From the IMG/VR virus record IMGVR_UViG_2541047915_000011: DNA of 40,625 nt, one strand, 5' to 3'. Below the pieces are notes generated by a model that saw only the letters and a list, made by a program, of their open reading frames with translations, searched no databases and was not told the origin of the DNA. Numbering within the stretch: position 1 is the first letter of the stretch; every line of letters starts with the position of its first letter. The stretch comes from a virus. Taxonomy: Duplodnaviria; Heunggongvirae; Uroviricota; Caudoviricetes. This document shows, piece after piece, positions 2,149 to 36,291 of the stretch. Made by a program: the position numbers and the translations under genes.

Positions 2149-2836
2149 TCCACGGCAATTTTTTCCAGTTACTGGATGGATCTTTCAACCATGCAGTGAC
2201 TTCCTTTAAATCACGGTTCGCAGTGGCGACGGGGGTATCGTATATCATTAACCATTTTTGTCGGGCGCGAACATAAGCACTGGCATAATCTTCCCATGAA
2301 GCGAAACAATCTTGTGCTCTTTGAGCATTCAGTAATAACACTATCCAGGCCTGGTTTTCATCGCACCAGCCTAAACCGGCGATGCAACGAGTTAAAAAAG
2401 CAGTGCGCATACAGTCAAACGCCAGCCCATCCAGAACCTGGCCTTGTGCTGCCAGTTGTTCGTAAAAATCATGTGGAGAATTACCAAGCCCTGTAGCCCA
2501 GCGCTGTAATATAACGCCAATTTGTTGACGGAAATCTTCGTTGCTTTGGTAAGTTTCTGTTCCTAGCTCTTGTTTAACCTGTAGTGCAAGTTGTTGACGC
2601 TTATCATCAGTCAACTTTAAATCTAACGTGAAGCCATTTACTGACAGTCCATTACGACGAGCAACTATATCACCAATTGCTAATGCCCACTTACGTCTCT
2701 TTGTTGCTCGTCTTTTGTCCTTGATTAGATCCTTTTCTTTTTCTTTAGCAATAAAAGCATCGATTTGTGGTTTGTTTTTTTTGTATCTATAGATAAAAAT
2801 AAATATTGCGACCAGGAGAACAATGATAAGACTCAT
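2120..2836 (-). CDS. Hypothetical protein, 238 aa, with N-terminal hydrophobic signal-anchor/TM segment (LIIVLLVAIFIFIY) followed by a basic stretch
   Basis: ORF track. Start overlaps the stop of the upstream 404-aa gene (TAATG-type overlap at 2834-2838), suggesting translational coupling. Confidence 0.6.
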   Translation of the reverse strand: MSLIIVLLVAIFIFIYRYKKNKPQIDAFIAKEKEKDLIKDKRRATKRRKWALAIGDIVARRNGLSVNGFTLDLKLTDDKRQQLALQVKQELGTETYQSNEDFRQQIGVILQRWATGLGNSPHDFYEQLAAQGQVLDGLAFDCMRTAFLTRCIAGLGWCDENQAWIVLLLNAQRAQDCFASWEDYASAYVRARQKWLMIYDTPVATANRDLKEVTAWLKDPSSNWKKLPWNEFKIFEPN

Positions 2837-4050
2837 TATTTTTCAACCTCTGACAGGGGTAAGTAATGAGATGTCTGTAATGTCAAACTCTCTATCTCAA
2901 AGGAAATGTTGCTGATATTTTGACCTGCAAATTGCGGATGCCACTCAGCGCCAGGGAATAACATTTCCGCAGAAGTAGCAACTATAGGGTCAATAGCATT
3001 AAGATAATGTAACTTATCAGGTGCGCTGTGTAACAGTAACCACTGCAACTCCACTGAAGGATTTGTAAAATGTTCTAATAAATGAAAGTTATTATGTAGT
3101 ACGCTTAGTAAAAAACTGGTTTCGTATACTTCCGTTGCATATTTCCACCCCTGATATTCAGGTGTATTTTCATAAACAATACCCATACCTTCACAATCAC
3201 TATGTCGAACTGCTTGTGGTGATAATAGTTGCAAAAGAGACAAAACATCGTCCGCATATTTTTTAACTGGATGACGATTTTGCTTACCTTTTATTTGATC
3301 AATTTCAAGTGAATCACCAACAACATTGAGAGCAATAGTAACATGAGGAATATTATTATTATCACGCAAACTGAATAACCGTAATTTATGTTGCTCAATT
3401 TGATTTGCATAATACTCACCATAACCACCGGTAAGATTTTTTCGATCATCAAACTGGCCTACGCAATGTTGCATATGCCATGATTCATAAGCCATTTCAC
3501 GACGAAGGTTCGAATGACTGGCATCAAACTCAACAATTTTTCCGTCTGGCACATCAAGTATTGACTTTACAGTATTTTGTTCACTCGGCTGCCACCCTTT
3601 CTCGCGTCGTTGAAGCATCTTTTCATGCTCTTCTTCACGCATTCTGAACGCAACGTAGCAGGTTATGCGCTGTAGTTTTGATTCCAGACGGGTACCACAT
3701 TTCCTGGAAAGAAATTCCACCAACTCCCGTTCTTTGGTTAATATTTGTTGATGATCGGTTTCGATATAATAAAGTGTCGCAGTTGATACTGAGGCAGTAT
3801 TAAACTTCGATACCAGCCATTCCGGGATTACATCATCATTTTTATTAAACAGTGAATATTCTGCAAGCGAGTTAATTTGTTGCACCATTGGAAAGTCACT
3901 AATTAGCCATCGATAAAAATGGTTGAGTAACCATTTTTGGATGGTCTCATTATCCTGGCGAAACAGACTTCTTTGCAAAATTGCTGTTTTTACTTCCGGG
4001 GCATTAATTACATCCCTTGCATTATAATTCTGGTGAATATTTCCAGTCAT
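2836..4050 (-). CDS. Hypothetical protein, 404 aa, first gene of the 3-gene operon
   Basis: ORF track. Preceded by a 487-bp AT-rich intergenic region (4051-4537). Contains an HCVGQF...GGYGEYY segment. No confident family call. Confidence 0.6.
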   Translation of the reverse strand: MTGNIHQNYNARDVINAPEVKTAILQRSLFRQDNETIQKWLLNHFYRWLISDFPMVQQINSLAEYSLFNKNDDVIPEWLVSKFNTASVSTATLYYIETDHQQILTKERELVEFLSRKCGTRLESKLQRITCYVAFRMREEEHEKMLQRREKGWQPSEQNTVKSILDVPDGKIVEFDASHSNLRREMAYESWHMQHCVGQFDDRKNLTGGYGEYYANQIEQHKLRLFSLRDNNNIPHVTIALNVVGDSLEIDQIKGKQNRHPVKKYADDVLSLLQLLSPQAVRHSDCEGMGIVYENTPEYQGWKYATEVYETSFLLSVLHNNFHLLEHFTNPSVELQWLLLHSAPDKLHYLNAIDPIVATSAEMLFPGAEWHPQFAGQNISNISFEIESLTLQTSHYLPLSEVEK

Positions 4051-4537
4051 AACATCCGCCCGTGTTTATTATATCACTCAAAGCAATAATTGTTGACTAT
4101 AGATTTTTTATCTAAATCAGCATGGTTGCAGGTACATACTCAAGTAAGCCACTCAAGAAAATAACGTAAACTCAATAGTGGCAGCGTCACAAACTTTGGA
4201 AATTATGTCTTATATTTGCAGTTTATTTTAGTGAATAATTGAGATAAATGACATTATTTTACATCCTCAATAATTCAGGCTGTAAGAGGACGGCAAATAC
4301 ATTCATAATTATCAGGGGATGAACATTCAGGAAAGTAGTCAGTATCGTCAACTTTTTCTTTTATCACTACATGAAGATTTCGTGTAGATACTCCCATCTC
4401 TGCCACTTCTCCCCTCACATTTACACTGGAGCTAAACCCGCCGATTGCGCTACAATGCCCGCCCTTAAAGTGGGGGCACTCCCCTAACCGCTTCATCAGG
4501 TGAAGCGGCTCTGACCTGTCATCAGAACGAGAGAATT

Positions 4538-5899
4538 ATGTTTAAACCGGAACTCCTTTCCCCGGCGGGAACGCTGAAAAATATGCGTTACGCTTTCGCT
4601 TATGGCGCAGATGCTGTTTATGCGGGCCAGCCGCGTTACTCCCTGCGTGTACGCAACAACGAATTCAACCACGAAAATCTTCAGCTCGGCATCAATGAAG
4701 CCCACGCGCTGGGGAAAAAGTTTTATGTCGTGGTCAACATTGCACCGCACAACGCCAAGCTGAAAACCTTTATCCGTGACCTGAAACCGGTGGTGGAAAT
4801 GGGGCCGGATGCGCTGATTATGTCCGATCCAGGGCTGATTATGCTGGTGCGTGAACACTTCCCGGAAATGCCAATCCACCTCTCGGTACAGGCTAACGCC
4901 GTAAACTGGGCGACGGTGAAATTCTGGCAGCAAATGGGTCTGACCCGCGTGATCCTCTCTCGCGAACTGTCACTGGAAGAGATTGAAGAGATCCGCAATC
5001 AGGTGCCGGATATGGAGATCGAAATCTTCGTTCACGGCGCGCTGTGCATGGCCTACTCCGGTCGCTGCCTGCTCTCTGGCTATATCAACAAGCGCGACCC
5101 GAACCAGGGCACCTGCACCAACGCCTGCCGCTGGGAGTACAATGTCCAGGAAGGGAAAGAAGATGACGTCGGCAACATCGTACACAAGTACGAGCCGATT
5201 CCGGTGCAAAATGTTGAGCCGACGCTGGGTATCGGCGCGCCAACCGACAAAGTGTTTATGATCGAAGAAGCCCAGCGTCCGGGCGAGTATATGACCGCGT
5301 TTGAAGATGAGCACGGCACTTACATCATGAACTCGAAAGATCTGCGCGCCATCGCCCATGTTGAACGCCTGACCAAAATGGGCGTGCATTCGCTGAAAAT
5401 CGAAGGCCGTACCAAATCTTTCTACTATTGCGCACGCACCGCGCAGGTTTACCGTAAAGCTATCGATGACGCCGCTGCGGGCAAACCGTTCGATACCAGC
5501 CTGCTGGAAACGCTGGAAGGTCTGGCGCATCGTGGCTATACCGAAGGTTTCCTGCGTCGTCATACCCACGACGATTATCAGAACTACGAATACGGTTATT
5601 CGGTTTCTGACCGCCAGCAGTTTGTTGGTGAGTTTACCGGTGAGCGCAAGGGGGAGCTCGCGGCGGTAGCGGTGAAAAATAAATTCTCCGTTGGCGACAG
5701 CCTTGAGCTGATGACGCCGCAAGGCAACATTAACTTTACCCTTGAGCATATGGAAAACGCCAAAGGTGAAGCGATGCCGGTCGCACCAGGCGATGGTTAT
5801 ACTGTGTGGCTCCCGGTGCCGCAGGATCTTGAGCTAAATTACGCGCTGCTGATGCGTAATTTCTCCGGGGAAACCACGCGTAACCCCCACGGTAAGTGA
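4538..5899 (+). CDS. yegQ: Peptidase U32 family protein YegQ (also called TrhP)
   Basis: 453-aa ORF whose sequence matches my recollection of E. coli YegQ over its length. Sits immediately upstream of CyaR as in E. coli. Confidence 0.9.
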   Translation: MFKPELLSPAGTLKNMRYAFAYGADAVYAGQPRYSLRVRNNEFNHENLQLGINEAHALGKKFYVVVNIAPHNAKLKTFIRDLKPVVEMGPDALIMSDPGLIMLVREHFPEMPIHLSVQANAVNWATVKFWQQMGLTRVILSRELSLEEIEEIRNQVPDMEIEIFVHGALCMAYSGRCLLSGYINKRDPNQGTCTNACRWEYNVQEGKEDDVGNIVHKYEPIPVQNVEPTLGIGAPTDKVFMIEEAQRPGEYMTAFEDEHGTYIMNSKDLRAIAHVERLTKMGVHSLKIEGRTKSFYYCARTAQVYRKAIDDAAAGKPFDTSLLETLEGLAHRGYTEGFLRRHTHDDYQNYEYGYSVSDRQQFVGEFTGERKGELAAVAVKNKFSVGDSLELMTPQGNINFTLEHMENAKGEAMPVAPGDGYTVWLPVPQDLELNYALLMRNFSGETTRNPHGK

Positions 5900-13103: not shown

Positions 13104-13697
13104 TCAATTATGTAAATCTTTTGTTTTATGTTCTTTGGCGTGTTGTGACAACAAATGGCTATAGCGTTTAAGCAAAATATTAGAAAGATTAAGCTCATTC
13201 ATGAAGTGTTCTTCTAATAAGTAACCATCAATATCAACTTTAATATCATTACCACTTTTCATCTTCTGTAACGTAGATTTTACACGCTCCAGCAGGATGC
13301 TTTGCTCATGGTAATAGTCCATAAGAAGAGTAACATCCTCTTTATCAAGCTTACTTAATTCGCTGAAGTAGGATTTAAACACTTTATCAGTCTGGTTTAA
13401 TGCAATCTGTAAGCGAGGCCCCCCTAATGATTTGACATTAATGGCAAAAGGCTCGCCAACAAAATGCTCCGAATTTTCGTCAAAGCCAATATATCTCGTT
13501 TTATCAAGAAAAGTGAGAGCGCGATGGTTATTAGCGATTTCATATGCAAACATTGTTCTGATACTGTCCCTCTCAGCCTCCATGCTTATATCATCACGAT
13601 GATTTGTATAAAATATATTTCCAACAAAGAGAACCATAGCAAGAATCACTGAACTTGCCTCCCAGTTAATATTTTTTAATCGTCGCTTAGTAAACAT
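13104..13697 (-). CDS. Z/fun-locus protein, 197 aa, N-terminal signal-anchor/TM helix, function unknown
   Basis: AT-rich ORF in the variable slot between G and FI. AAGGTG Shine-Dalgarno about 5 nt before the ATG. Hydrophobic segment SSVILAMVLFVGNIFY near the N-terminus. Confidence 0.7.
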   Translation of the reverse strand: MFTKRRLKNINWEASSVILAMVLFVGNIFYTNHRDDISMEAERDSIRTMFAYEIANNHRALTFLDKTRYIGFDENSEHFVGEPFAINVKSLGGPRLQIALNQTDKVFKSYFSELSKLDKEDVTLLMDYYHEQSILLERVKSTLQKMKSGNDIKVDIDGYLLEEHFMNELNLSNILLKRYSHLLSQHAKEHKTKDLHN

Positions 13698-19718: not shown

Positions 19719-20504
19719 ATGTTCAGTGATAATGTGACTAATGCGTGGTGGTTTATCTCTTTGTATCTATTTTTATTAATAGCATTAACATTTATTACCT
19801 TTGGTAAAAGTAATCTTATGAGGTTTATTGCACATCATTTCAATTTTGAGTATTCAGACAGAAAGTTAAAAATGCTCGACAAAAAATGGCGCGACATTCA
19901 ACTATTTAAAATAATTAACGGAATCAATGTATCAGGCATCGAAGATGTGAGAATGATACAGCAGGGGCTGATTGATGGAAAACTAAAAACATCGTATTTT
20001 TTTCTTACTCGCTTCTGGGGTGACATAACAAAACCACCACACATAATTAAAACAATAATTGTAATTCTGTCCAGCATTATTTATATTCTCTTCGCATGTT
20101 ATATACACAACAAACAATCCGCTATAGTAAGAGATGCCATAGGCATACCATATAAAAATATGATGTACTATGTTTATAGTGACAAAGTTCTTTTATCCTT
20201 CAACAATAAAACAGTTGAATTCAATAAAACTTATAGCCATGCCGATTGCAAGAGGCTACGAAACGTATTTATAAAAGACACACTTCCTGAGATCGCCTGC
20301 AATAAGCTCTTACAGCTAAACGAGGAGGACTCGGAATGGTTAAGTCAGGAGATTAAAGATAATAACAGCCAAAAAAAAGCATTATTAATAATATCCCTCA
20401 TCTATTTCATTTCAGGTCTGGTTATATTCCTGTCATATACAAAATTCCTTTACGCCAATAAGAAGGTTGTAGAATACAAAGCATCAAATAAAAATCACTC
20501 ATAA
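19719..20504 (+). CDS. orf30-locus polytopic membrane protein, 261 aa, function unknown
   Basis: AT-rich ORF on the opposite strand between V and S, the slot of P2 orf30. GAGGAG Shine-Dalgarno at about 19707-19712. At least three hydrophobic TM-like segments (N-terminal, central, C-terminal). Confidence 0.7.
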   Translation: MFSDNVTNAWWFISLYLFLLIALTFITFGKSNLMRFIAHHFNFEYSDRKLKMLDKKWRDIQLFKIINGINVSGIEDVRMIQQGLIDGKLKTSYFFLTRFWGDITKPPHIIKTIIVILSSIIYILFACYIHNKQSAIVRDAIGIPYKNMMYYVYSDKVLLSFNNKTVEFNKTYSHADCKRLRNVFIKDTLPEIACNKLLQLNEEDSEWLSQEIKDNNSQKKALLIISLIYFISGLVIFLSYTKFLYANKKVVEYKASNKNHS

Positions 20505-28716: not shown

Positions 28717-29735
28717 TGAGTAAGAAAAAAGGGAAAACACCGCAACCTGCGGCAAAAAAAATGACCGCCAGCGCCCCGAAAATGGAGGCATTCACCTTTG
28801 GTGAGCCGGTGCCGGTACTCGACCGCCGTGACATTCTGGATTACGTCGAGTGCATCAGTAACGGCAGATGGTATGAGCCGCCGGTCAGCTTTACCGGTCT
28901 GGCGAAAAGCCTGCGTGCTGCCGTGCATCACAGCTCGCCGATTTACGTCAAACGCAATATTCTGGCCTCGACATTTATCCCGCATCCGTGGCTTTCCCAG
29001 CAGGATTTCAGCCGCTTTGTGCTGGATTTTCTGGTGTTCGGTAATGCGTTTCTGGAAAAGCGTTACAGCACCACCGGTAAGGTCATCAGACTGGAAACCT
29101 CACCGGCAAAATATACCCGCCGTGGCGTGGAGGAGGATGTTTACTGGTGGGTGCCGTCCTTCAACGAGCCGACAGCCTTCGCGCCCGGCTCCGTGTTTCA
29201 CCTGCTGGAGCCGGATATCAATCAGGAGCTGTACGGCCTGCCGGAATATCTCAGCGCCCTTAACTCTGCCTGGCTGAATGAGTCGGCCACGCTGTTCCGC
29301 CGCAAGTATTACGAAAACGGCGCTCATGCCGGATACATCATGTATGTCACCGATGCCGTGCAGGATCGCAACGATATCGAAATGCTTCGCGAAAACATGG
29401 TTAAGTCGAAAGGCCGCAACAACTTTAAAAACCTGTTTCTCTATGCCCCACAGGGGAAAGCCGACGGCATTAAAATTATCCCCCTCAGTGAAGTGGCGAC
29501 GAAGGACGATTTTTTTAATATCAAAAAAGTCAGCGCCGCAGATCTCCTGGACGCACACCGCATCCCCTTTCAGTTGATGGGCGGTAAGCCGGAGAATGTC
29601 GGGTCACTAGGAGATATTGAAAAAGTGGCAAAGGTCTTTGTCCGCAATGAACTCATTCCATTACAGGAGAGAATAAAGTCAATAAATGAATGGTTAGATA
29701 TGGAAGTCATAAAATTCCTTGATTATAACTTATAA
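28716..29735 (+). CDS. Q: Portal protein gpQ
   Basis: 339 aa, start overlaps the P stop. P2 Q position, on the opposite strand to the capsid genes. Confidence 0.9.
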   Translation: MSKKKGKTPQPAAKKMTASAPKMEAFTFGEPVPVLDRRDILDYVECISNGRWYEPPVSFTGLAKSLRAAVHHSSPIYVKRNILASTFIPHPWLSQQDFSRFVLDFLVFGNAFLEKRYSTTGKVIRLETSPAKYTRRGVEEDVYWWVPSFNEPTAFAPGSVFHLLEPDINQELYGLPEYLSALNSAWLNESATLFRRKYYENGAHAGYIMYVTDAVQDRNDIEMLRENMVKSKGRNNFKNLFLYAPQGKADGIKIIPLSEVATKDDFFNIKKVSAADLLDAHRIPFQLMGGKPENVGSLGDIEKVAKVFVRNELIPLQERIKSINEWLDMEVIKFLDYNL

Positions 29736-29746
29736 GTAAATATATA

Positions 29747-29775
29747 AAGTTGGCGGAATGCAATCCCGCCAACTT
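29747..29775. terminator. Stem-loop between convergent Q and the 2-TM gene (possible bidirectional terminator)
   Basis: Perfect 10-bp stem AAGTTGGCGG / CCGCCAACTT with 9-nt loop. Flanking U-tracts are weak on both strands. Confidence 0.45.
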
Positions 29776-29867
29776 AACTATATATACTTCCTTTTTACTC
29801 TACTTAATTCTATCACTGATGAGGAGTGACAAAATGACAAATTAATAGTATCGATATAATCCAAAAT

Positions 29868-30485
29868 TTAACTCTCAACCTCAATAAAAATATTTTTGGG
29901 CCCATTACTAATCGATATACCGATTTCATCCAAAACAGCCATCATTTTTCTCTGATGAGTTTTATATTTATAGTCTTTATTTTCCTCTGTAATATGTGCA
30001 TTGGCTTCCTCAATAACACATTTGATTCTAGATATTATTTCTAGATAATCTCTCGAAACAGATATATCACCGCCTTGCGCTTCAGGGAACATAACCCTAT
30101 ACCATCTAAAAAAATTAACTTTCTCTGGATAGATGCTACTTCTTTTAGTTAACTCAGCACTTGCAAATTCTCTAAACATCGTCAGATGACTAGTGTAATT
30201 ACTATTATTATTATTTTTAACTCCAGCGTTATATGTCATCAAAGCAATCATAACACCAAAAACGGTAACAAAAGTTGTTATAAGCCATCCAAACGCCTGA
30301 AAATACATTACTATACCAGATGTTTTTTCCGCAAAAAATTTTAAGCACTGGCTATCGAAGCATATATCACGCTCATATAGCTTTTCATTCTGAATAGTTT
30401 CAAAAAGAGAAATTAGCGAAAAAATCAAAAAAAGAGCTGACGACACACCGACAATATATTTGAGAAGTCTAATATTTGCATTCAT
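29868..30485 (-). CDS. Small 2-TM membrane protein (205 aa), candidate effector partner of the adjacent reverse transcriptase
   Basis: ATG at 30483-30485 overlaps the RT stop (ATGA overlap). Hydrophobic helices at about residues 10-28 and 58-84. Strongly AT-rich. Confidence 0.7.
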   Translation of the reverse strand: MNANIRLLKYIVGVSSALFLIFSLISLFETIQNEKLYERDICFDSQCLKFFAEKTSGIVMYFQAFGWLITTFVTVFGVMIALMTYNAGVKNNNNSNYTSHLTMFREFASAELTKRSSIYPEKVNFFRWYRVMFPEAQGGDISVSRDYLEIISRIKCVIEEANAHITEENKDYKYKTHQRKMMAVLDEIGISISNGPKNIFIEVES

Positions 30486-31672
30486 AATGGTTTTAAAGAT
30501 GCCAATCTAGATTTAAAACACTCCAGTTTTTCTTTAAATGATTCAGAGCGAGTAAGAATAATCATCTTATATCTCGTCAAATCATATTTTCTTTTATACC
30601 AATGTTTATTTTGATTACCTTTCGAATACGACAACTCTAAACTTTTTATAGCTGCATCAATCACAGCAACATCTCTTTTAGATGGCATCGGTTTTATTGC
30701 CTGCAACTGTTTCTTGAATGATTCATATTTTTCATGCCCAACACGGCCAAGCTTATTCACTCTCCCCATACATCTATTGAATTCTTTTCTGTATGCAACA
30801 CTTGTTTTTGTGTTATTTTTTGCCGCCAGTAATTTCAAATTATGTATAGATGCCCTGATTCTTTTGACTTCATCGGATGGTAGTCGAGGTGAGTCATAGT
30901 CAACTCTTAAACCATGTACTTTTATAGGTTCAGATGAACAGTGAAATATTTTAGTTTTGTGCTTATTTATCGGCAAGTCATGCTCAGAAAGCATCCTCTC
31001 TATATGGCTTTGCATTTGAGAAAAATCATAATTACTTATTTTAGATGACACGGTAATATCATCTACCAAACGCGTATAAACAAGTCCTTTCCTCTGCGCA
31101 CGTCTTACCACATCCCCTTCAACAGCGAATAAACACAAAGTTGCTATATAGCTTGATGTTAAGGCCCCCTGTACGACAAAATCATCCTTAGTACATATAT
31201 CCACCAAGTATTCAAGAGCCTCATCCTTAATATGCAATATCTCCTCAAACACGCTCCTAACCAGATCTCTATGGATATTATCGAAAAAATTACTTATATC
31301 CACCTTGAGAACTGTTTTTGCTCCACAATGAGCCTTTGCACATGAAACATAGTCACGTTTGACATTAGAATTTAACACATCATTTTTACTGGGAACTGAA
31401 CCAAACAAAAATGAAGGAAAAACAACCAATTCCTTAAAGATACGTTTATTAATTCTACTCTGTAATAATCTCATTTTAGGATGCAGGGAGTAGACAATCC
31501 GTTTGCTTCCGTCAATTTTGGGAATTTCTTTTAGAGTATATTTCTCATCTAATGGTAATTCTGCAATAGCTTTAAGCTCTTCAACAGAAATCGATAAAGC
31601 CTTTGACAACTTTTCAAGTGTTGTGATAGGAGCATTGGATTTGCTGTATGGTTTAAATTTATCCATAAACAT
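30482..31672 (-). CDS. Reverse transcriptase, retron-like (UG/Abi-type not excluded). About 396 aa from the ATG at 31672; the ORF track extends to a TTG at 31756.
   Basis: RT motifs in order: IPKIDGSKRIV, CAKAH, VLKVDISNFFDNI, QGALTSSYIATL, LVYTRLVDDITV (catalytic DD), INKHKTKIF, IKVHGLRV, then a basic C-terminal domain of about 135 aa. Start is ambiguous; the upstream extension overlaps a structured inverted-repeat region. Confidence 0.8.
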   Translation of the reverse strand: MFMDKFKPYSKSNAPITTLEKLSKALSISVEELKAIAELPLDEKYTLKEIPKIDGSKRIVYSLHPKMRLLQSRINKRIFKELVVFPSFLFGSVPSKNDVLNSNVKRDYVSCAKAHCGAKTVLKVDISNFFDNIHRDLVRSVFEEILHIKDEALEYLVDICTKDDFVVQGALTSSYIATLCLFAVEGDVVRRAQRKGLVYTRLVDDITVSSKISNYDFSQMQSHIERMLSEHDLPINKHKTKIFHCSSEPIKVHGLRVDYDSPRLPSDEVKRIRASIHNLKLLAAKNNTKTSVAYRKEFNRCMGRVNKLGRVGHEKYESFKKQLQAIKPMPSKRDVAVIDAAIKSLELSYSKGNQNKHWYKRKYDLTRYKMIILTRSESFKEKLECFKSRLASLKPL

Positions 31673-31689
31673 ACCATTCAAATTCAAAG

Positions 31690-31820
31690 TTACGTACGGT
31701 CTTCCCATACTCAAGGGTGGAACAGCAGAGATGCTTACATCAACAATTGTCAGCAACAGCCTCTGCTATCTTTCGACCGTACGTAATGTCGTCGGCTACG
31801 GCACCATCGTAGTTGACGAC
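31690..31820 (-). repeat. Nested inverted repeats and hairpins in the RT leader (candidate structured RNA element)
   Basis: 12-bp perfect inverted repeat TTACGTACGGTC (31690-31701 and 31775-31786) enclosing a 7-bp inner repeat AGCAGAG/CTCTGCT. Adjacent hairpin at 31788-31820 with 13-bp imperfect stem GTCGTCGGCTACG / CGTAGTTGACGAC. Confidence 0.5.
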
Positions 31821-31997
31821 GGTGGGGCCTCGCTGATAGGTCCATAGTGGACGCTTTTTTGTAAAAGCAAAAACTGACAATTTAATGTTGTTGACTGCCG
31901 CATACCAAGCGAATCGCTGGTGCGCTAAGAATAATGCAACAAAAAAATAAGAATTTCAACCGGGTAACTGCAAGCCAGCGACATCGTTTAGCGCGCA

Positions 31998-32016
31998 GTG
32001 CTTTCCCCGCCTCGCC
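31998..32016. other. cos cohesive-end sequence (P2 type)
   Basis: Minus strand reads GGCGAGGCGGGGAAAGCAC, matching the 19-nt P2 cohesive end as I recall it. Lies between the RT and gene A. Confidence 0.7.
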
Positions 32017-32588
32017 CGCCCGCTTCATGTGGCGGTTTTAATGCAGTTGCATAGATACTATGGATCCGCACCAGCTCTGACCGCAAGCAGCTGGAACGGG
32101 CATCCCCGACGCATGCAAAAACATTCACTTGTTGCATGCACGGCTTATTTAATGACAAATCAACTTAAGCGTCACCGAAGCTCCCACAAAAAAAACGTAA
32201 CGCCATGATTTTAGTGATATTTATGACTTTTTTAATTGCTTATTTAAGTCCGCCATATTGAAACCGTGCATTTTTTAGCCACCAATAACTTTAAAAAATT
32301 TACATTGCTTTCAATACCTTATCATCCGTAGTCCCTGCTTTTTACTTTGAGCTATATCAAAAAAAGCTCAAACATCCTTGATGCAAAACCAGTATTACAC
32401 AACATAAAATGCAACCAGAAACAACGACATACTATATGTTGTGTTGTTCAGGCTCTCTGTTCGGTGATATGCCAGATCACTTTGCGTTTAAACAGAGCAT
32501 TATTTCAGGGCAAGACTTCGCTAAATAGTAACTCCGCCTTAGAAGCGCATATATCGGCGGAAATTGCCCTCTGCTTACAGGAGGAGAT

Positions 32589-32699
32589 ATGAAGAAGTGC
32601 TATTACTGCATTCTCGTTCTGGCCCTCTTTGGCTATCCATATGGTAGTCCAAGTGGTTTGTCAGTAAACGTCAGTAATATCCATGTAAGTATTATTCTT
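32589..32699 (+). CDS. Possible small hydrophobic protein (36 aa, MKKCYYCILVLALFGYPYGSPSGLSVNVSNIHVSIIL)
   Basis: AGGAGG Shine-Dalgarno at 32579-32584, ATG at 32589, stop TAG directly before the bidirectional terminator. Below the ORF-track size cut-off. Expression unverified. Confidence 0.3.
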
Positions 32700-32713
32700 T
32701 AGTATGCTTCAAA

Positions 32714-32745
32714 CAAAAAAACCACCTGCCAGGGTGGTTTTTTTG
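32714..32745. terminator. Bidirectional intrinsic terminator (ends the A operon on the minus strand and the small ORF on the plus strand)
   Basis: A7 tract, AACCACC / GGTGGTT stem with TGCCAG loop, then T7 tract. Confidence 0.6.
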
Positions 32746-33004
32746 CGCCTGTCATCATTCCGATGAAAGACTAGCAAGACTTCGCTCGAGATGAATTATG
32801 CTTCGACAAAAGGTCACTCGCAATGGTTTTATTAGCCGAAATAGATGCTCTTTTATGACTCGAATCAAATAGCTGCCTTAAATTACATGCTAGCGATTCA
32901 ATACAATTTAGCCTTCTACTTCAGCATGCTATTGCTCCTCATCTGCCTTAGAGGCGCTTCGCATAATCCATTCAAAGGCATATAAAATCACGCTGCATTT
33001 TTAC

Positions 33005-35287
33005 TCAAATGGGTAACAAAAATCCAGGCCACTCATCAGCGACCTGATAATTGAAAGATTTCCCGTAATAATTTACGGTCGCGCCACGCGCCAGCGCCTC
33101 AAGCTCCCATCGCTGCGGCCTGATACCGTTCTGAGCAAGGTCAACGCGGATACGGGTAATTTGCATTCTTTCCGACCGGGTCAGTCTGGCCGATGGTGCA
33201 ATTTCATGTGGTTTTAACGGGCTTCCGTTTCTTTGCTGACGATTTGGTGTTCTCAGGTCGTGTTTTAATGCCCCCCTGAGCGCCCTCACGACCTCCGTGT
33301 CATTCCATTCGATAACACCGTCATCAACCAGATTAAGCACTGCTGCGGCGTGTTCAGAAGGTGTGGGAGCCGGTAACGAAGTATCACCACCGGTGAGCTT
33401 TCCACAGTTATTGACAGGACTCCGAGGCGCGGCGATGCCGCTTTTTAAAGTCAAAGGCTCAACGACCGGAACTTTCGGCACAATGCGCCAGTCCGTCGTT
33501 CTGGTGATATGAATATGACGCGCGCCGAGATGCGGCGCGTAAATGCCGACCACTCTCTCGACTTCTTCCTCGTACTCGTTAACGTCATCCGACGGGCTAC
33601 GGGCGACCCTGACAGTCTGACAATCGCGCGGGACATTTGCCCCGCCCTGCGCGCTGATATACAACGCAAAATCACCACTGTCTGCAGCGGCGCGTGCAGC
33701 CTCGACGCGCTCGTCAAACTCATCAGCAATGCTGACGCCGCGAGGCAATTTGCGTAGTTCACGGTAAGCCCCCATTGTCGGCAGACCAACCGTTTTAAAT
33801 TGCGGAATGCGCCACGTTGACGCCCATGCGGTAACAGCCGCTGCAGTATCTTTCAGCGGCCTGCCGGTATCGTTATCGAGCTGACCATCCAGTGCATAGC
33901 CGTCGATGTTTTTTGAAATGTATTTCGCGATATACCCCGCAGCACCGCCCCGGTTAAGATGTTTTGCCTGAAAACGGTTTCGCGCAGCTCCTCTTTCGTC
34001 GCCATCCTCTTTGAGCGCGTAGCGACGCATGATTTCAATAATCTGGTTACGCTGGCGTGGATTACAAAAAAGCATCATATGCCAGTGCGGCGTTCCGTCG
34101 TGGTGTGGCTCGACGACTCGCAAACCGTAGACCTGTAAATCATTATCCTTGAATGCCGTGCGCATCAGGCTCCAGATACGGCAGAGATATCGCTGCGCAT
34201 CCTTTGGATTAAATGCCTCATCATTCCAGCCGTGATTAAGCTGGACGGTTTTACTTTCGCCTTTTCCGACCTGACGTGTCGGGTGATACTTTGACGGCGC
34301 GGTCAGCGTGATAAACATCCCCACATCGCCCTCTGCGGCGGCGTAACGCTCAATACCGGCAATGGTGTTCATCAGCTCCATCCGGCGAATTTCAGGATTA
34401 GAAATACTGCCCATAACCTTACTGATAAGGTCGATGCGCTCGCCGGTTTCCCTGTTTTCAAGGTCACACGATTTAAGAAATTCCAGATTTGCCTGGCGGC
34501 GCGCACGCACATCACGAATGGCATGTTTACTGGCATAAGGAGAACGGTCTTTATTCACCTCCCCGACAGCAATCAGTAACGCCTCATGCCAGCGCATACG
34601 CTGGCCTTTAAGCTGACTAATCCACCACTCATCGTTAAACAGGCGGGCAATGGCAGAATATGCCTGCCTCGTGGTCATCTGTCCTTTACGGTATTTTTTC
34701 CAGAAAAGCGGGGAAATATTGAAAGCACGTGCAGCGCCAGCAACATGACCATACAGATGCGCCTGCGCCTCATCTGTAAACAGCGATTCTTTCTCGCCAT
34801 GTGCATCAACCCAGGCATCGCAGAGTTCCTCATACATCATGAAAAGCTGCGATGAAATACGGGCGGCAAACTTTTTCAGCTCCTTGTCATTCATCCCCGG
34901 CAGACGCGCATAATGGTCACGCTCTGCCAGAAACAGCAACGACGCGTCGGTGTTCATTTCATGGCGCTGATTCACGCGCTCAATACGCGGCCATAAACGG
35001 CGCTGAAAAGTGGATGTGAGGAAATAAAACCCGTGTAGCGGGCTTTTATTGCGCCGTATGTAGTCATAACGTGAAGTAAACAGCGAGCGCAAAAAGTAAG
35101 GCAGGCGGTTAATCGTGGATAAAACACCTTGCACCTGACGCATCTCGTCACGTGTAAGGGGTCTTTCGCGCCCGACAGCCTCGCGTGGCGTATTCCATGC
35201 ATAAGCACCGGTAAACGCCTTACCGGTGCCTGCGGCAAACGCAGACGGAGGTACGCAGGTGTATTGCTCCTGGAAAGAATGACTCAT
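33005..35287 (-). CDS. A: Replication initiation protein gpA (rolling-circle initiator)
   Basis: 760 aa, P2 A size and position. Start overlaps the stop of the upstream PP-loop gene. Confidence 0.9.
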   Translation of the reverse strand: MSHSFQEQYTCVPPSAFAAGTGKAFTGAYAWNTPREAVGRERPLTRDEMRQVQGVLSTINRLPYFLRSLFTSRYDYIRRNKSPLHGFYFLTSTFQRRLWPRIERVNQRHEMNTDASLLFLAERDHYARLPGMNDKELKKFAARISSQLFMMYEELCDAWVDAHGEKESLFTDEAQAHLYGHVAGAARAFNISPLFWKKYRKGQMTTRQAYSAIARLFNDEWWISQLKGQRMRWHEALLIAVGEVNKDRSPYASKHAIRDVRARRQANLEFLKSCDLENRETGERIDLISKVMGSISNPEIRRMELMNTIAGIERYAAAEGDVGMFITLTAPSKYHPTRQVGKGESKTVQLNHGWNDEAFNPKDAQRYLCRIWSLMRTAFKDNDLQVYGLRVVEPHHDGTPHWHMMLFCNPRQRNQIIEIMRRYALKEDGDERGAARNRFQAKHLNRGGAAGYIAKYISKNIDGYALDGQLDNDTGRPLKDTAAAVTAWASTWRIPQFKTVGLPTMGAYRELRKLPRGVSIADEFDERVEAARAAADSGDFALYISAQGGANVPRDCQTVRVARSPSDDVNEYEEEVERVVGIYAPHLGARHIHITRTTDWRIVPKVPVVEPLTLKSGIAAPRSPVNNCGKLTGGDTSLPAPTPSEHAAAVLNLVDDGVIEWNDTEVVRALRGALKHDLRTPNRQQRNGSPLKPHEIAPSARLTRSERMQITRIRVDLAQNGIRPQRWELEALARGATVNYYGKSFNYQVADEWPGFLLPI

Positions 35288-36291
35288 TCACATACACCGG
35301 CATAGACACTACTGCAAACGGCTTTATCATTCGCCGAAGCCAGTAAATCAAACTGAGTACCCCCACGCGTTGTCATTGTCCAGTCATGGTAGGTTTCAAT
35401 TCCGTATGCCTCGACTGTTACAACCTCAATACGACGTTCTGCGCGTAACGGATCATGTGTGGATGGGAAAAAAGTGGAATTTCCCCGACGGGAGCACGAC
35501 GCAACCAGTCGTTCCCATTCAGCAACCCGCTTTATTTCCTCCGGCCACCGGCGAAAAATTTCTGCCAGTTCAGATTTACGGACATGAATACATGGCATAC
35601 AACCAACACGGCCACACCCCTGCTGATATAACGGATTTGGCTTAATGTCATGTCTTCTGGCTATTGCAAATACATCTTCATGCTTCCAGTGCAAAATCGG
35701 GCGATATACATGCAATCCGGGGGTGTTGTCTGCATCCTCTTCCCAGACAGGTAAAGCTGCGCGTGATGGCGATTCCTGAGCACGCACTCCCTGCCAGCTA
35801 ATCACTTCCTCAAATTCATTGAGTAAAGGCAGGATTACCTGAGAACGCACGGGTTCATGTTTCAGTTCAAATGTGCAAAATCTGGCTTTGGTTGATGGGA
35901 AACGCCCCTTCCACAGACACAAATCAAGAAACGGGATACCCGTTGGTTTGAGAATTTCCAGCGCACAACTGATGCGCTGGTGCGCTTCTTCTTCCGACAT
36001 TCCACAATCGTTAACCAACAAATCAGGCCATTTGGTCTGGATAAACTTGCGCTTTGATTCAATCCGGCAGGAAAAATCAGCCCTGACCCTTTTAATTGGG
36101 CCAAGCCGTTTTTCCAGATAATCCAGATATTTCATTGTCTGTGGATGTTCATGTCCCGTATCAGCAAAAACCGGCAATATGGGTACATTTTCTTCAATAG
36201 CGACAAGCCACTGAGCAAGGCTGTCCTTTCCACCTGAAACAAAAATAACATTGATGGTATTTTCAGTATGGCAACGAGCATCAGTAATCAT
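35284..36291 (-). CDS. PAPS-reductase-like PP-loop ATP pyrophosphatase family protein (335 aa)
   Basis: PP-loop motif FVSGGKDS near the N-terminus and a C-terminal Cys cluster (CGRVGCMPC). 4-nt overlaps with orf83 upstream and A downstream. Confidence 0.75.
   Translation of the reverse strand: MITDARCHTENTINVIFVSGGKDSLAQWLVAIEENVPILPVFADTGHEHPQTMKYLDYLEKRLGPIKRVRADFSCRIESKRKFIQTKWPDLLVNDCGMSEEEAHQRISCALEILKPTGIPFLDLCLWKGRFPSTKARFCTFELKHEPVRSQVILPLLNEFEEVISWQGVRAQESPSRAALPVWEEDADNTPGLHVYRPILHWKHEDVFAIARRHDIKPNPLYQQGCGRVGCMPCIHVRKSELAEIFRRWPEEIKRVAEWERLVASCSRRGNSTFFPSTHDPLRAERRIEVVTVEAYGIETYHDWTMTTRGGTQFDLLASANDKAVCSSVYAGVCE

Follow-up and report, generated by a model that had tools for sequence, protein, structure and literature searches.

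A type IV retron of the Ec48/Eco6 family with a prematurely ended effector gene beside cos in a P2-like prophage

The window, that is, the whole stretch of 40,625 nt analysed here, is a P2-like prophage situated between trhP and yegR. It carries a pair of minus-strand genes that were originally predicted to form an AT-rich module for phage defence or abortive infection, made up of a retron-like reverse transcriptase (RT) and a two-transmembrane (two-TM) partner; an Abi-P2 or other UG/Abi class of RT was left open. The locus raises the questions of which kind of RT system it is and whether all of its parts are intact. It is almost certainly Retron Ec48, also called Retron-Eco6, a type IV retron that forms a three-part anti-phage cargo of the prophage and whose effector has been cut short. 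What was observed directly is which three parts are present, how they are arranged, and that the effector is truncated. The block is AT-rich as described, with a GC content of 0.35 in the module vs 0.49 in the window, and its coding features and outer limits are as follows.

30482-31666, minus strand: retron RT of type IV, 394 aa, with profile matches and a catalytic LVDD box
29868-30485, minus strand: two-TM effector of the Ec48 family, truncated allele of 205 aa, ending with TAA at 29870-29868
29778-29867, minus strand: rest of the effector frame, untranslated, with codons 207-235 and the original stop
29747-29775, no strand assigned: palindromic hairpin of 13 bp, located where the effector and Q genes converge, a likely bidirectional terminator
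31959 to 29747, minus strand: functional unit from promoter to terminator, including the non-coding RNA (ncRNA)

Both minus-strand reading frames lie where they had been placed, and the stop of the RT gene and the start of the effector gene overlap in the tetranucleotide ATGA (30482-30485). The segment 29868-31672, proposed as the module, does contain both genes; the functional unit is longer, extending from 31959 to 29747 with the ncRNA inside it. Consensus and terminator scans place a promoter and a terminator on the two flanks of the retron unit, and the terminator hairpin occupies the position of P2 tQ with another sequence. The original prediction had overlooked the ncRNA and the nonsense truncation, and had not identified the module as a named and characterised system.

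The RT reading frame is open from a TTG and spans 30482-31756 on the minus strand. Its start is ambiguous: candidates are the ATG codons at 31708 (408 aa), at 31672 (396 aa, the start used originally), and at 31666 (394 aa, the choice of NCBI). Counted from 31666, all of the quoted motifs are present and in order, namely CAKAH at 109, VLKVDISNFFDNI at 119, QGALTSSYIATL at 166, LVDD at 200-203, INKHKTKIF at 233, and VHG at 250. The polymerase active site (xxDD) is therefore intact, and CAKAH and VHG represent the NAxxH-like and VTG-like motifs of retrons. Counted from 31708, the catalytic aspartates become residues 216 and 217, the same numbering as in the published Ec48 mutant D216A/D217A. The final 135 aa are basic, as had been noted, with 33 K+R vs 12 D+E and a pI of 10.3.

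Profile searches confirm that the enzyme is a retron RT and assign it to type IV. The PADLOC model RT_IV is matched over positions 2-385 of 386 with 586 bits (E=7.6e-177), the second-best model is RT_V with 212 bits (E=3.8e-63), and RT_VI follows with E=5.8e-54. All of the 25 best PADLOC models are retron RTs except one CRISPR-associated RT. Pfam RVT_1 is matched end to end with E=1.7e-31. A search for solved structures found none for the RT or the effector, the nearest being the Ec86 RT (E=5e-16).

The partner protein belongs to the same family of systems. It matches the PADLOC model 2TM_IV with E=2e-75 and the NCBIfam equivalog NF038235 (retron_Ec48_2TM) with 202 bits, against a cutoff of 65. 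On identical DNA, RefSeq labels the two genes as 'retron Ec48 family effector membrane protein' and 'reverse transcriptase family protein'. Two hydrophobic segments, at residues ~7-30 and ~62-85, account for the two predicted TM helices; the earlier description of a 205-aa two-TM partner was thus correct as to topology, whereas the length of 205 aa is that of a truncated allele of a 235-aa protein. In the published classification, type IV retrons are the RT clade tied to a membrane protein with two TM segments, exemplified by Retron-Eco6 (Ec48) (Mestre 2020). The match to the published Ec48 is made via family models, annotation, and residue numbering, not by aligning the original 1997 sequence. 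The exact 394-aa RT sequence occurs in 227 public contigs, and the module is present in 57 of 5,426 complete E. coli genomes. It is a named, experimentally characterised defence system within a published prophage hotspot, and hence already known.

The third part of the system, a structured RNA, was located upstream of the RT gene. Its elements and the neighbouring signals are listed below in the order of transcription.

31931-31959, minus strand: sigma-70-type promoter (TTGAAA, 17 nt, CATTAT) from a consensus scan
about 31925-31731, minus strand: retron ncRNA, upstream of the RT and on the same strand
31904-31921, minus strand: 5' hairpin before a1, ACCAGCG-AUU-CGCUUGGU, found by covariation
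31874-31903, minus strand: a1 arm, long and interrupted, ending in a conserved AG and pairing with 31731-31753
31840-31868, minus strand: msr, with two small hairpins (31868-31853 and 31852-31840) in the minimum-free-energy fold
31802-31824, minus strand: conserved hairpin CACCGUCGU..ACGAUGGUG at the msr/msd junction
31754-31801, minus strand: msd, predicted template for an msDNA of ~48 nt, limits +/- 3 nt
31731-31753, minus strand: a2 arm, the partner of a1
31683-31730, minus strand: nearly invariant leader linking a2 to the RT gene, from alignments

Related loci were collected from Buttiauxella, Xenorhabdus, Serratia, Enterobacter, Klebsiella, Photorhabdus, Proteus, viral contigs, and metagenomes. 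As no more than 2 loci emerged from scanning species-representative genomes with an effector alignment, the search relied instead on look-ups of exact proteins and on a DNA pattern from the leader. Two matches to the leader pattern (L035 and L044) were dropped as GC-rich chance matches without an RT. The RTs of the related loci are 55-100% identical to that of the window, and the two-TM gene lies downstream wherever the contig extends that far. The -35 and -10 hexamers hold the same place in the homologous loci of other genera, and transcription is predicted to start near 31925.

Covariation among 18 distinct sequences supports the fold of the ncRNA. In the a1/a2 stem, 96.3% of alignment cells are paired vs 27-52% in slid controls, and seven pairs show changes on both sides. 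For the entire structure the values are 93.3% vs 34-43% with slid partners, and 19 pairs with changes on both sides. The 5' hairpin (31904-31921) has 98-100% of cells paired and compensatory changes in four of seven pairs, while the junction hairpin (31802-31824) has 95% paired, with compensatory and wobble changes. Both msr hairpins show compensatory changes, the second being partly misaligned in one clade. G31874 is invariant in all 18 distinct sequences and, from its position and invariance, is predicted to be the branching guanosine whose 2'-OH primes reverse transcription. Neither a retron RNA family nor an intron RNA was matched when 29000-33500 was scanned against Rfam at E<=1; the only matches in this interval are weak chance ones from the terminator hairpin at 32712-32746.

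The size of the msd agrees with published data. The msDNA of Eco6 has been documented as 48 nt, and as 45 nt by sequencing (Palka 2022, PMC8989520). In the window, the 48 nt 5' of a2 stop exactly at the base of the hairpin 31824-31802, so that the length of the predicted template fits the published msDNA. A published msd sequence was not found in the supplements of Palka 2022 or in a literature search, and the limits of the msDNA given here are therefore predictions.

These results bear on the class of the RT. An enzyme of the Abi-P2 type or another UG/Abi (DRT) class, defence RTs that are not retrons and likewise occur in the P2 variable region, would work without an msr-msd RNA. An RT at this P2 locus was first described as Abi-P2 (Odegrip 2006), and the enzyme of the window does share weak similarity with the Drt3a, Drt2, and AbiA models. 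However, all three stay far below their cutoffs, with 40 bits for Drt3a (cutoff 200), 35 for Drt2 (390), and 24 for AbiA (250), whereas RT_IV reaches 586 bits and the best 25 PADLOC models are of retrons save the CRISPR-associated one. An a1/a2 msr-msd RNA supported by covariation and an Ec48-family effector as partner also argue against this class, which we regard as extremely improbable, although it had been left open originally. A group II intron RT or maturase was rejected as well, as TIGR04416 gives 45 bits against a cutoff of 300 and Rfam shows no intron RNA match.

With the locus assigned to Retron Ec48, its mode of action can be taken from the literature, from which msDNA synthesis, RecBCD guarding, and abortive infection are drawn; the loss of function is what we infer for the window. 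Ec48 defends by abortive infection, for which the DD box of the RT and the TM helices are required (Millman, bioRxiv 10.1101/2020.06.21.156273). The effector deletion used in Millman 2020 removed residues 3-85, an interval that spans both TM segments of the window effector. Escape mutants of lambda mapped to gam and those of T7 to gene 5.9; expression of either RecBCD inhibitor led to the death of retron-carrying cells, and Ec48 cannot be established in recB mutants (Millman 2020). The escape mutants, the killing by inhibitors, and the incompatibility with recB mutants gave rise to a model in which Ec48 guards RecBCD and acts by abortive infection (Millman 2020). Gam alone was later shown to be a sufficient trigger of Eco6 (Zhang 2025). 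The reading of the locus as a defence module is supported by these published experiments together with the family assignment. Toxicity of the two-TM protein alone, which had been suggested as a check, has a negative answer in print, as the effector expressed alone was not toxic (Palka 2022, PMC8989520).

As established for Ec48, one promoter would serve a structured ncRNA, the RT, and a translationally coupled two-TM effector. The RT would prime at the 2'-OH of the conserved guanosine where the a1/a2 stem ends and copy the msd into a multicopy single-stranded DNA of ~48 nt. The resulting complex would monitor RecBCD; once RecBCD is disabled by a phage inhibitor, for instance Gam of lambda or gp5.9 of T7, the membrane effector would kill the cell before the phage cycle is completed. 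Whether this applies to the allele of the window is doubtful owing to the stop at codon 206.

The premature stop results from one base. An A in place of G at 29870 converts codon 206 from CAA (Gln) to TAA, a C-to-T change on the coding strand. It is the sole difference from E. coli AH21I008 (NZ_CP196251.1) across 29700-32100. In that genome the RefSeq effector has 235 aa, so that the window copy comprises 205 of 235 residues, and the untranslated segment 29778-29867 is identical to its full-length gene. Over all 40,625 nt, the window and AH21I008 differ at five bases, which indicates that the stop arose recently. All 57 complete genomes with the module have G at 29870, and codon 206 is open in every E. 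coli-type viral or metagenome copy that reaches the end of the gene, bar a locus identical to the window. The exact 205-aa protein has the accession WP_021565820.1 in public data. A true internal stop occurs only in the draft assembly GCA_000460795.1, in a contig that matches the window at 100% identity across 6.6 kb. The possibility that the stop allele is widespread, raised by five other 205-aa entries, was rejected, as four of them are contigs that end there with the wild-type start of codon 206.

The stop could be a sequencing or assembly error, in which case the strain would encode the 235-aa effector. It is a single transition in a single draft assembly, and four other draft contigs break <=2 nt from the site of codon 206, which hints at local assembly difficulty. 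These four contigs, however, read the wild-type CA at codon 206 (one ends after the C) and so give no evidence of an error at base 29870. The four other differences of the window from the nearest genome are ordinary substitutions, and the 205-aa protein has its own RefSeq accession. An error is improbable on this evidence, and we take the stop as a natural nonsense allele.

The residues lost are conserved. Homologues of the effector, down to 37% identity, are 232-238 aa long with a conserved C-terminus, and the missing tail holds the invariant residues D212, N215, F218, R232, and Y234. In an AlphaFold (AF2) model of the effector with a mean pLDDT of 78, the stop falls in the middle of helix 197-218, where the local pLDDT is 80-88. 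A fold search of the model against the PDB returned nothing at E<=0.001. On balance, conservation and the model suggest that the effector is impaired by the loss of its last 30 residues. As these residues are conserved, the system is probably weakened or inactive in the strain of the window. The truncated effector could still work, and no mutational data on the conserved C-terminal tail were found in a literature search.

In its strongest form, this loss would make the module an inactive remnant, in which the nonsense codon abolishes the effector, and the RT and msDNA are kept without Ec48-type protection. We consider this slightly more probable than its opposite. The stop deletes the five invariant residues, cuts a confidently modelled helix, and is absent from the 57 complete genomes and from the other viral and metagenome copies that reach the gene end. 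As Ec48 is lethal upon loss of RecBCD (Millman 2020), selection for loss of the effector is plausible. On the other hand, both TM helices and 120 of the ~150 soluble residues are retained, and no decay is seen in the remaining operon, the whole 40.6 kb having five differences from a strain with an intact gene; promoter, ncRNA, and RT are intact in the window copy. The allele is a natural nonsense mutation in a prophage that is intact in other respects; it offers a direct way to ask if the C-terminal tail is needed and illustrates a route by which effectors of abortive infection may be lost.

The leader that separates a2 from the RT gene is strongly conserved among the loci compared: its 48 nt are almost unchanged among loci whose RTs share only 55% identity. 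Its 3' arm GACCGUACGUAA (31701-31690) is perfectly complementary to UUACGUACGGUC in the msd (31786-31775). When four flanking pairs are included, 97.6% of cells in this msd-leader helix are paired vs 24-38% in slid controls. It crosses the a1/a2 stem, which implies a pseudoknot or an alternation. The msd-leader helix is favoured by RNAalifold and also when the full leader is folded as a single sequence; because this crossing helix was preferred, RNAalifold alone did not return a1/a2, and both helices were then tested explicitly. The same GACCGUACGUAA arm can alternatively pair with a local arm, UUGAGUAUGG (31714-31705), which contains an invariant AUG at 31708-31706. This local hairpin has 95.1% of cells paired vs 27-40% in slid controls.

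Variation in these pairings is limited. Positions 31694 (leader), 31782 (msd), and 31710 (local arm) co-vary from C/G/G to A/U/U in six sequences, which form one clade and so probably reflect a single evolutionary event. Most leader pairs show no variation at all, and the G-U pairs of the leader are compatible with the sense strand of the retron only. The covariation evidence for the leader pairings is suggestive, not strong. The AUG at 31708 is in the RT frame in the E. coli type, where it opens the 408-aa form, and starts an upstream ORF of 4-8 codons in other clades. An N-terminal extension conserved as protein (MGRPYVTL...) was rejected, as a stop follows after 4-8 codons in the other clades; the conservation of this AUG thus acts at the RNA level.

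Tentatively, these pairings suggest that an RNA switch may lie between the ncRNA and the RT gene in type IV retrons, although we consider this rather unlikely at present. In such a switch, the leader arm would pair with the msd template as long as the template is present. Once the msd has been copied and RNase H1 has removed the template, the arm would fold onto the local arm and hide the AUG at 31708-31706. Translation of the RT and of the coupled effector would thereby be tied to the state of the msd. A literature search found no description of such a leader switch in type IV retrons, and the pairing observation may be new. If functional, the leader would extend the coupling of reverse transcription to translation within RT clade 3 from type VI to type IV.

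Comparison with known systems places the module closest to Retron Ec48/Eco6 (Mao 1997, Millman 2020, Mestre 2020). The two share the families of RT and two-TM effector, the E. coli host, the order ncRNA-RT-effector, overlapping genes, msd size, DD at 216/217, and TM helices within residues 3-85; they differ in that the effector of the window ends at codon 206. Type V (Retron-Sen1/Se72) and type VI (Retron-Vpa2) are other members of RT clade 3 with related RTs. Type V retrons are likewise triggered by Gam, but their effector is a cold-shock-like protein, unlike the two-TM protein of the window. The effectors of type VI, also unlike it, are a small protein and an HTH protein. In type VI retrons, the msd is linked by an RNA to a coding region under translational control, to which the proposed leader switch would be a cousin. 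Their regulatory repeats are direct, so that the msDNA pairs with the riboregulator, whereas in the window it is the msd RNA that is complementary to the leader. The Abi-P2 RT of P2-EC30 is also an RT of the P2 variable region that excludes other phages; in contrast to the module of the window, it is a single protein of the UG/Abi class without an msr-msd RNA or a membrane partner (Odegrip 2006).

The position of the module in the prophage is that of accessory cargo, and one further feature marks the edge of the cargo site.

31998-32016, minus strand: P2 cos sequence GGCGAGGCGGGGAAAGCAC, an exact 19-nt match with 0.02 expected by chance

Portal gene Q ends at 29735, which places the module between Q and cos, as originally described. 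Two earlier statements about P2 also hold. The P2 reference has no gene between cosL and Q, which lie just 167 nt apart with a terminator between them; its genes orf91, tin, and old stand between A and cosR, on the opposite side of cos. In the window, 32046-33020 takes the place of these three genes, and they are absent. Homology to P2 ends at 29674 inside Q and restarts at 31990, and around cos it covers only 31990-32045. The cos-proximal gpA-gpQ region of P2 has been reported as a hotspot of anti-phage cargo, retrons included (Rousset 2022). Like the module of the window, old and tin of P2 are accessory anti-phage cargo between gpA and gpQ, by cos, and old is linked to RecBCD status, as is Ec48. 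They are located on the A side of cos, in contrast to the module on the Q side, and the proteins are unrelated. The same placement of the retron was found in an Enterobacter prophage and in one metagenome contig. In a Serratia prophage, the retron is located between the tail-fibre and sheath genes, which is the other variable site of P2.

Comparison of the window with its nearest complete genome, that of E. coli AH21I008 (NZ_CP196251.1, positions 730120-770744), which carries an intact effector gene, gave an identity of 99.988% over the whole window. The two differ by five transitions in all 40,625 nt, three of which are missense (gpD A225T, terminase T454I, and DUF5405 I14T), while the remaining two are a synonymous change and the effector stop itself. 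Four independent draft or metagenome contigs with related retron loci (L014-L017) each end no more than 2 nt past effector codon 205, an end point (equivalent to window positions 29869-29871) that coincides with the site of the effector stop in the window. Those of the four that reach codon 206 have the wild-type C or CA there. A search of complete genomes for a second (repeat) copy of the 38 nt downstream of this break point found none.

In the related locus on metagenome contig OKVX01005496.1 (L029), alignment of the RT homologue stops at residue 301, and the effector match starts approximately 360 nt beyond the end of that alignment. The early end and the gap suggest that the RT gene is disrupted in this contig.

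The region between a2 and the RT gene is nearly invariant, and a segment of the msd is able to pair with it.

31730-31683, minus strand: nearly invariant leader that separates a2 from the RT gene
31790-31775, minus strand: msd segment able to pair with the leader

The leader has two alternative partners, either the msd or a local arm that contains an invariant AUG (31708-31706). Leader pairing may represent a switch that couples the state of the msd to translation of the RT and effector. Positions 31782, 31694, and 31710 change jointly in six sequences.

A type IV retron is also found at another position in a P2-like prophage. In Serratia (L012, CP015613.1, locus 2784-4702), the retron lies between the tail-fibre and tail-sheath genes, and type IV retrons therefore occupy both known P2 cargo sites. 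In the window, the final ~60 nt of portal gene Q (29675-29735) show no alignment to P2 Q, so the variable cargo region starts within the 3' end of Q and not beyond it. Between cos and gene A, an AT-rich stretch of approximately 1 kb (32046-33020) without an annotated gene takes the place of P2 orf91-tin-old.

32589-32702, plus strand: ORF for a hydrophobic product of 37 aa, with a strong ribosome-binding site (GGAGGAG)
32712-32746: bidirectional terminator hairpin, 3' of the 37-aa ORF

A PHROG scan of this ORF returned no match. Positions 32290-33004 match a few P2-like phages at approximately 94% and are mostly unannotated there; one P2-like phage record lists a hypothetical protein for the region.

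Two cargo-like ORFs and a PAPS-reductase-domain gene are also present in the prophage.

13104-13697, minus strand: 197-aa cargo-like ORF at the Z/fun site, flanked by the tail-fibre assembly and sheath genes
19719-20504, plus strand: 261-aa cargo-like ORF encoded on the opposite strand, flanked by a gene for virion morphogenesis and by baseplate gene V
35284-36291, minus strand: PAPS-reductase-domain gene (Pfam, E=5e-35)

The 197-aa and 261-aa ORFs both occupy further P2 variable positions, and neither had a PADLOC match or an above-threshold Pfam match. The PAPS-reductase-domain gene lies directly upstream of replication gene A, at a site where P2, unlike the window, carries no such gene, and shows a weaker likeness to the SspD, BrxP, and DndC models.
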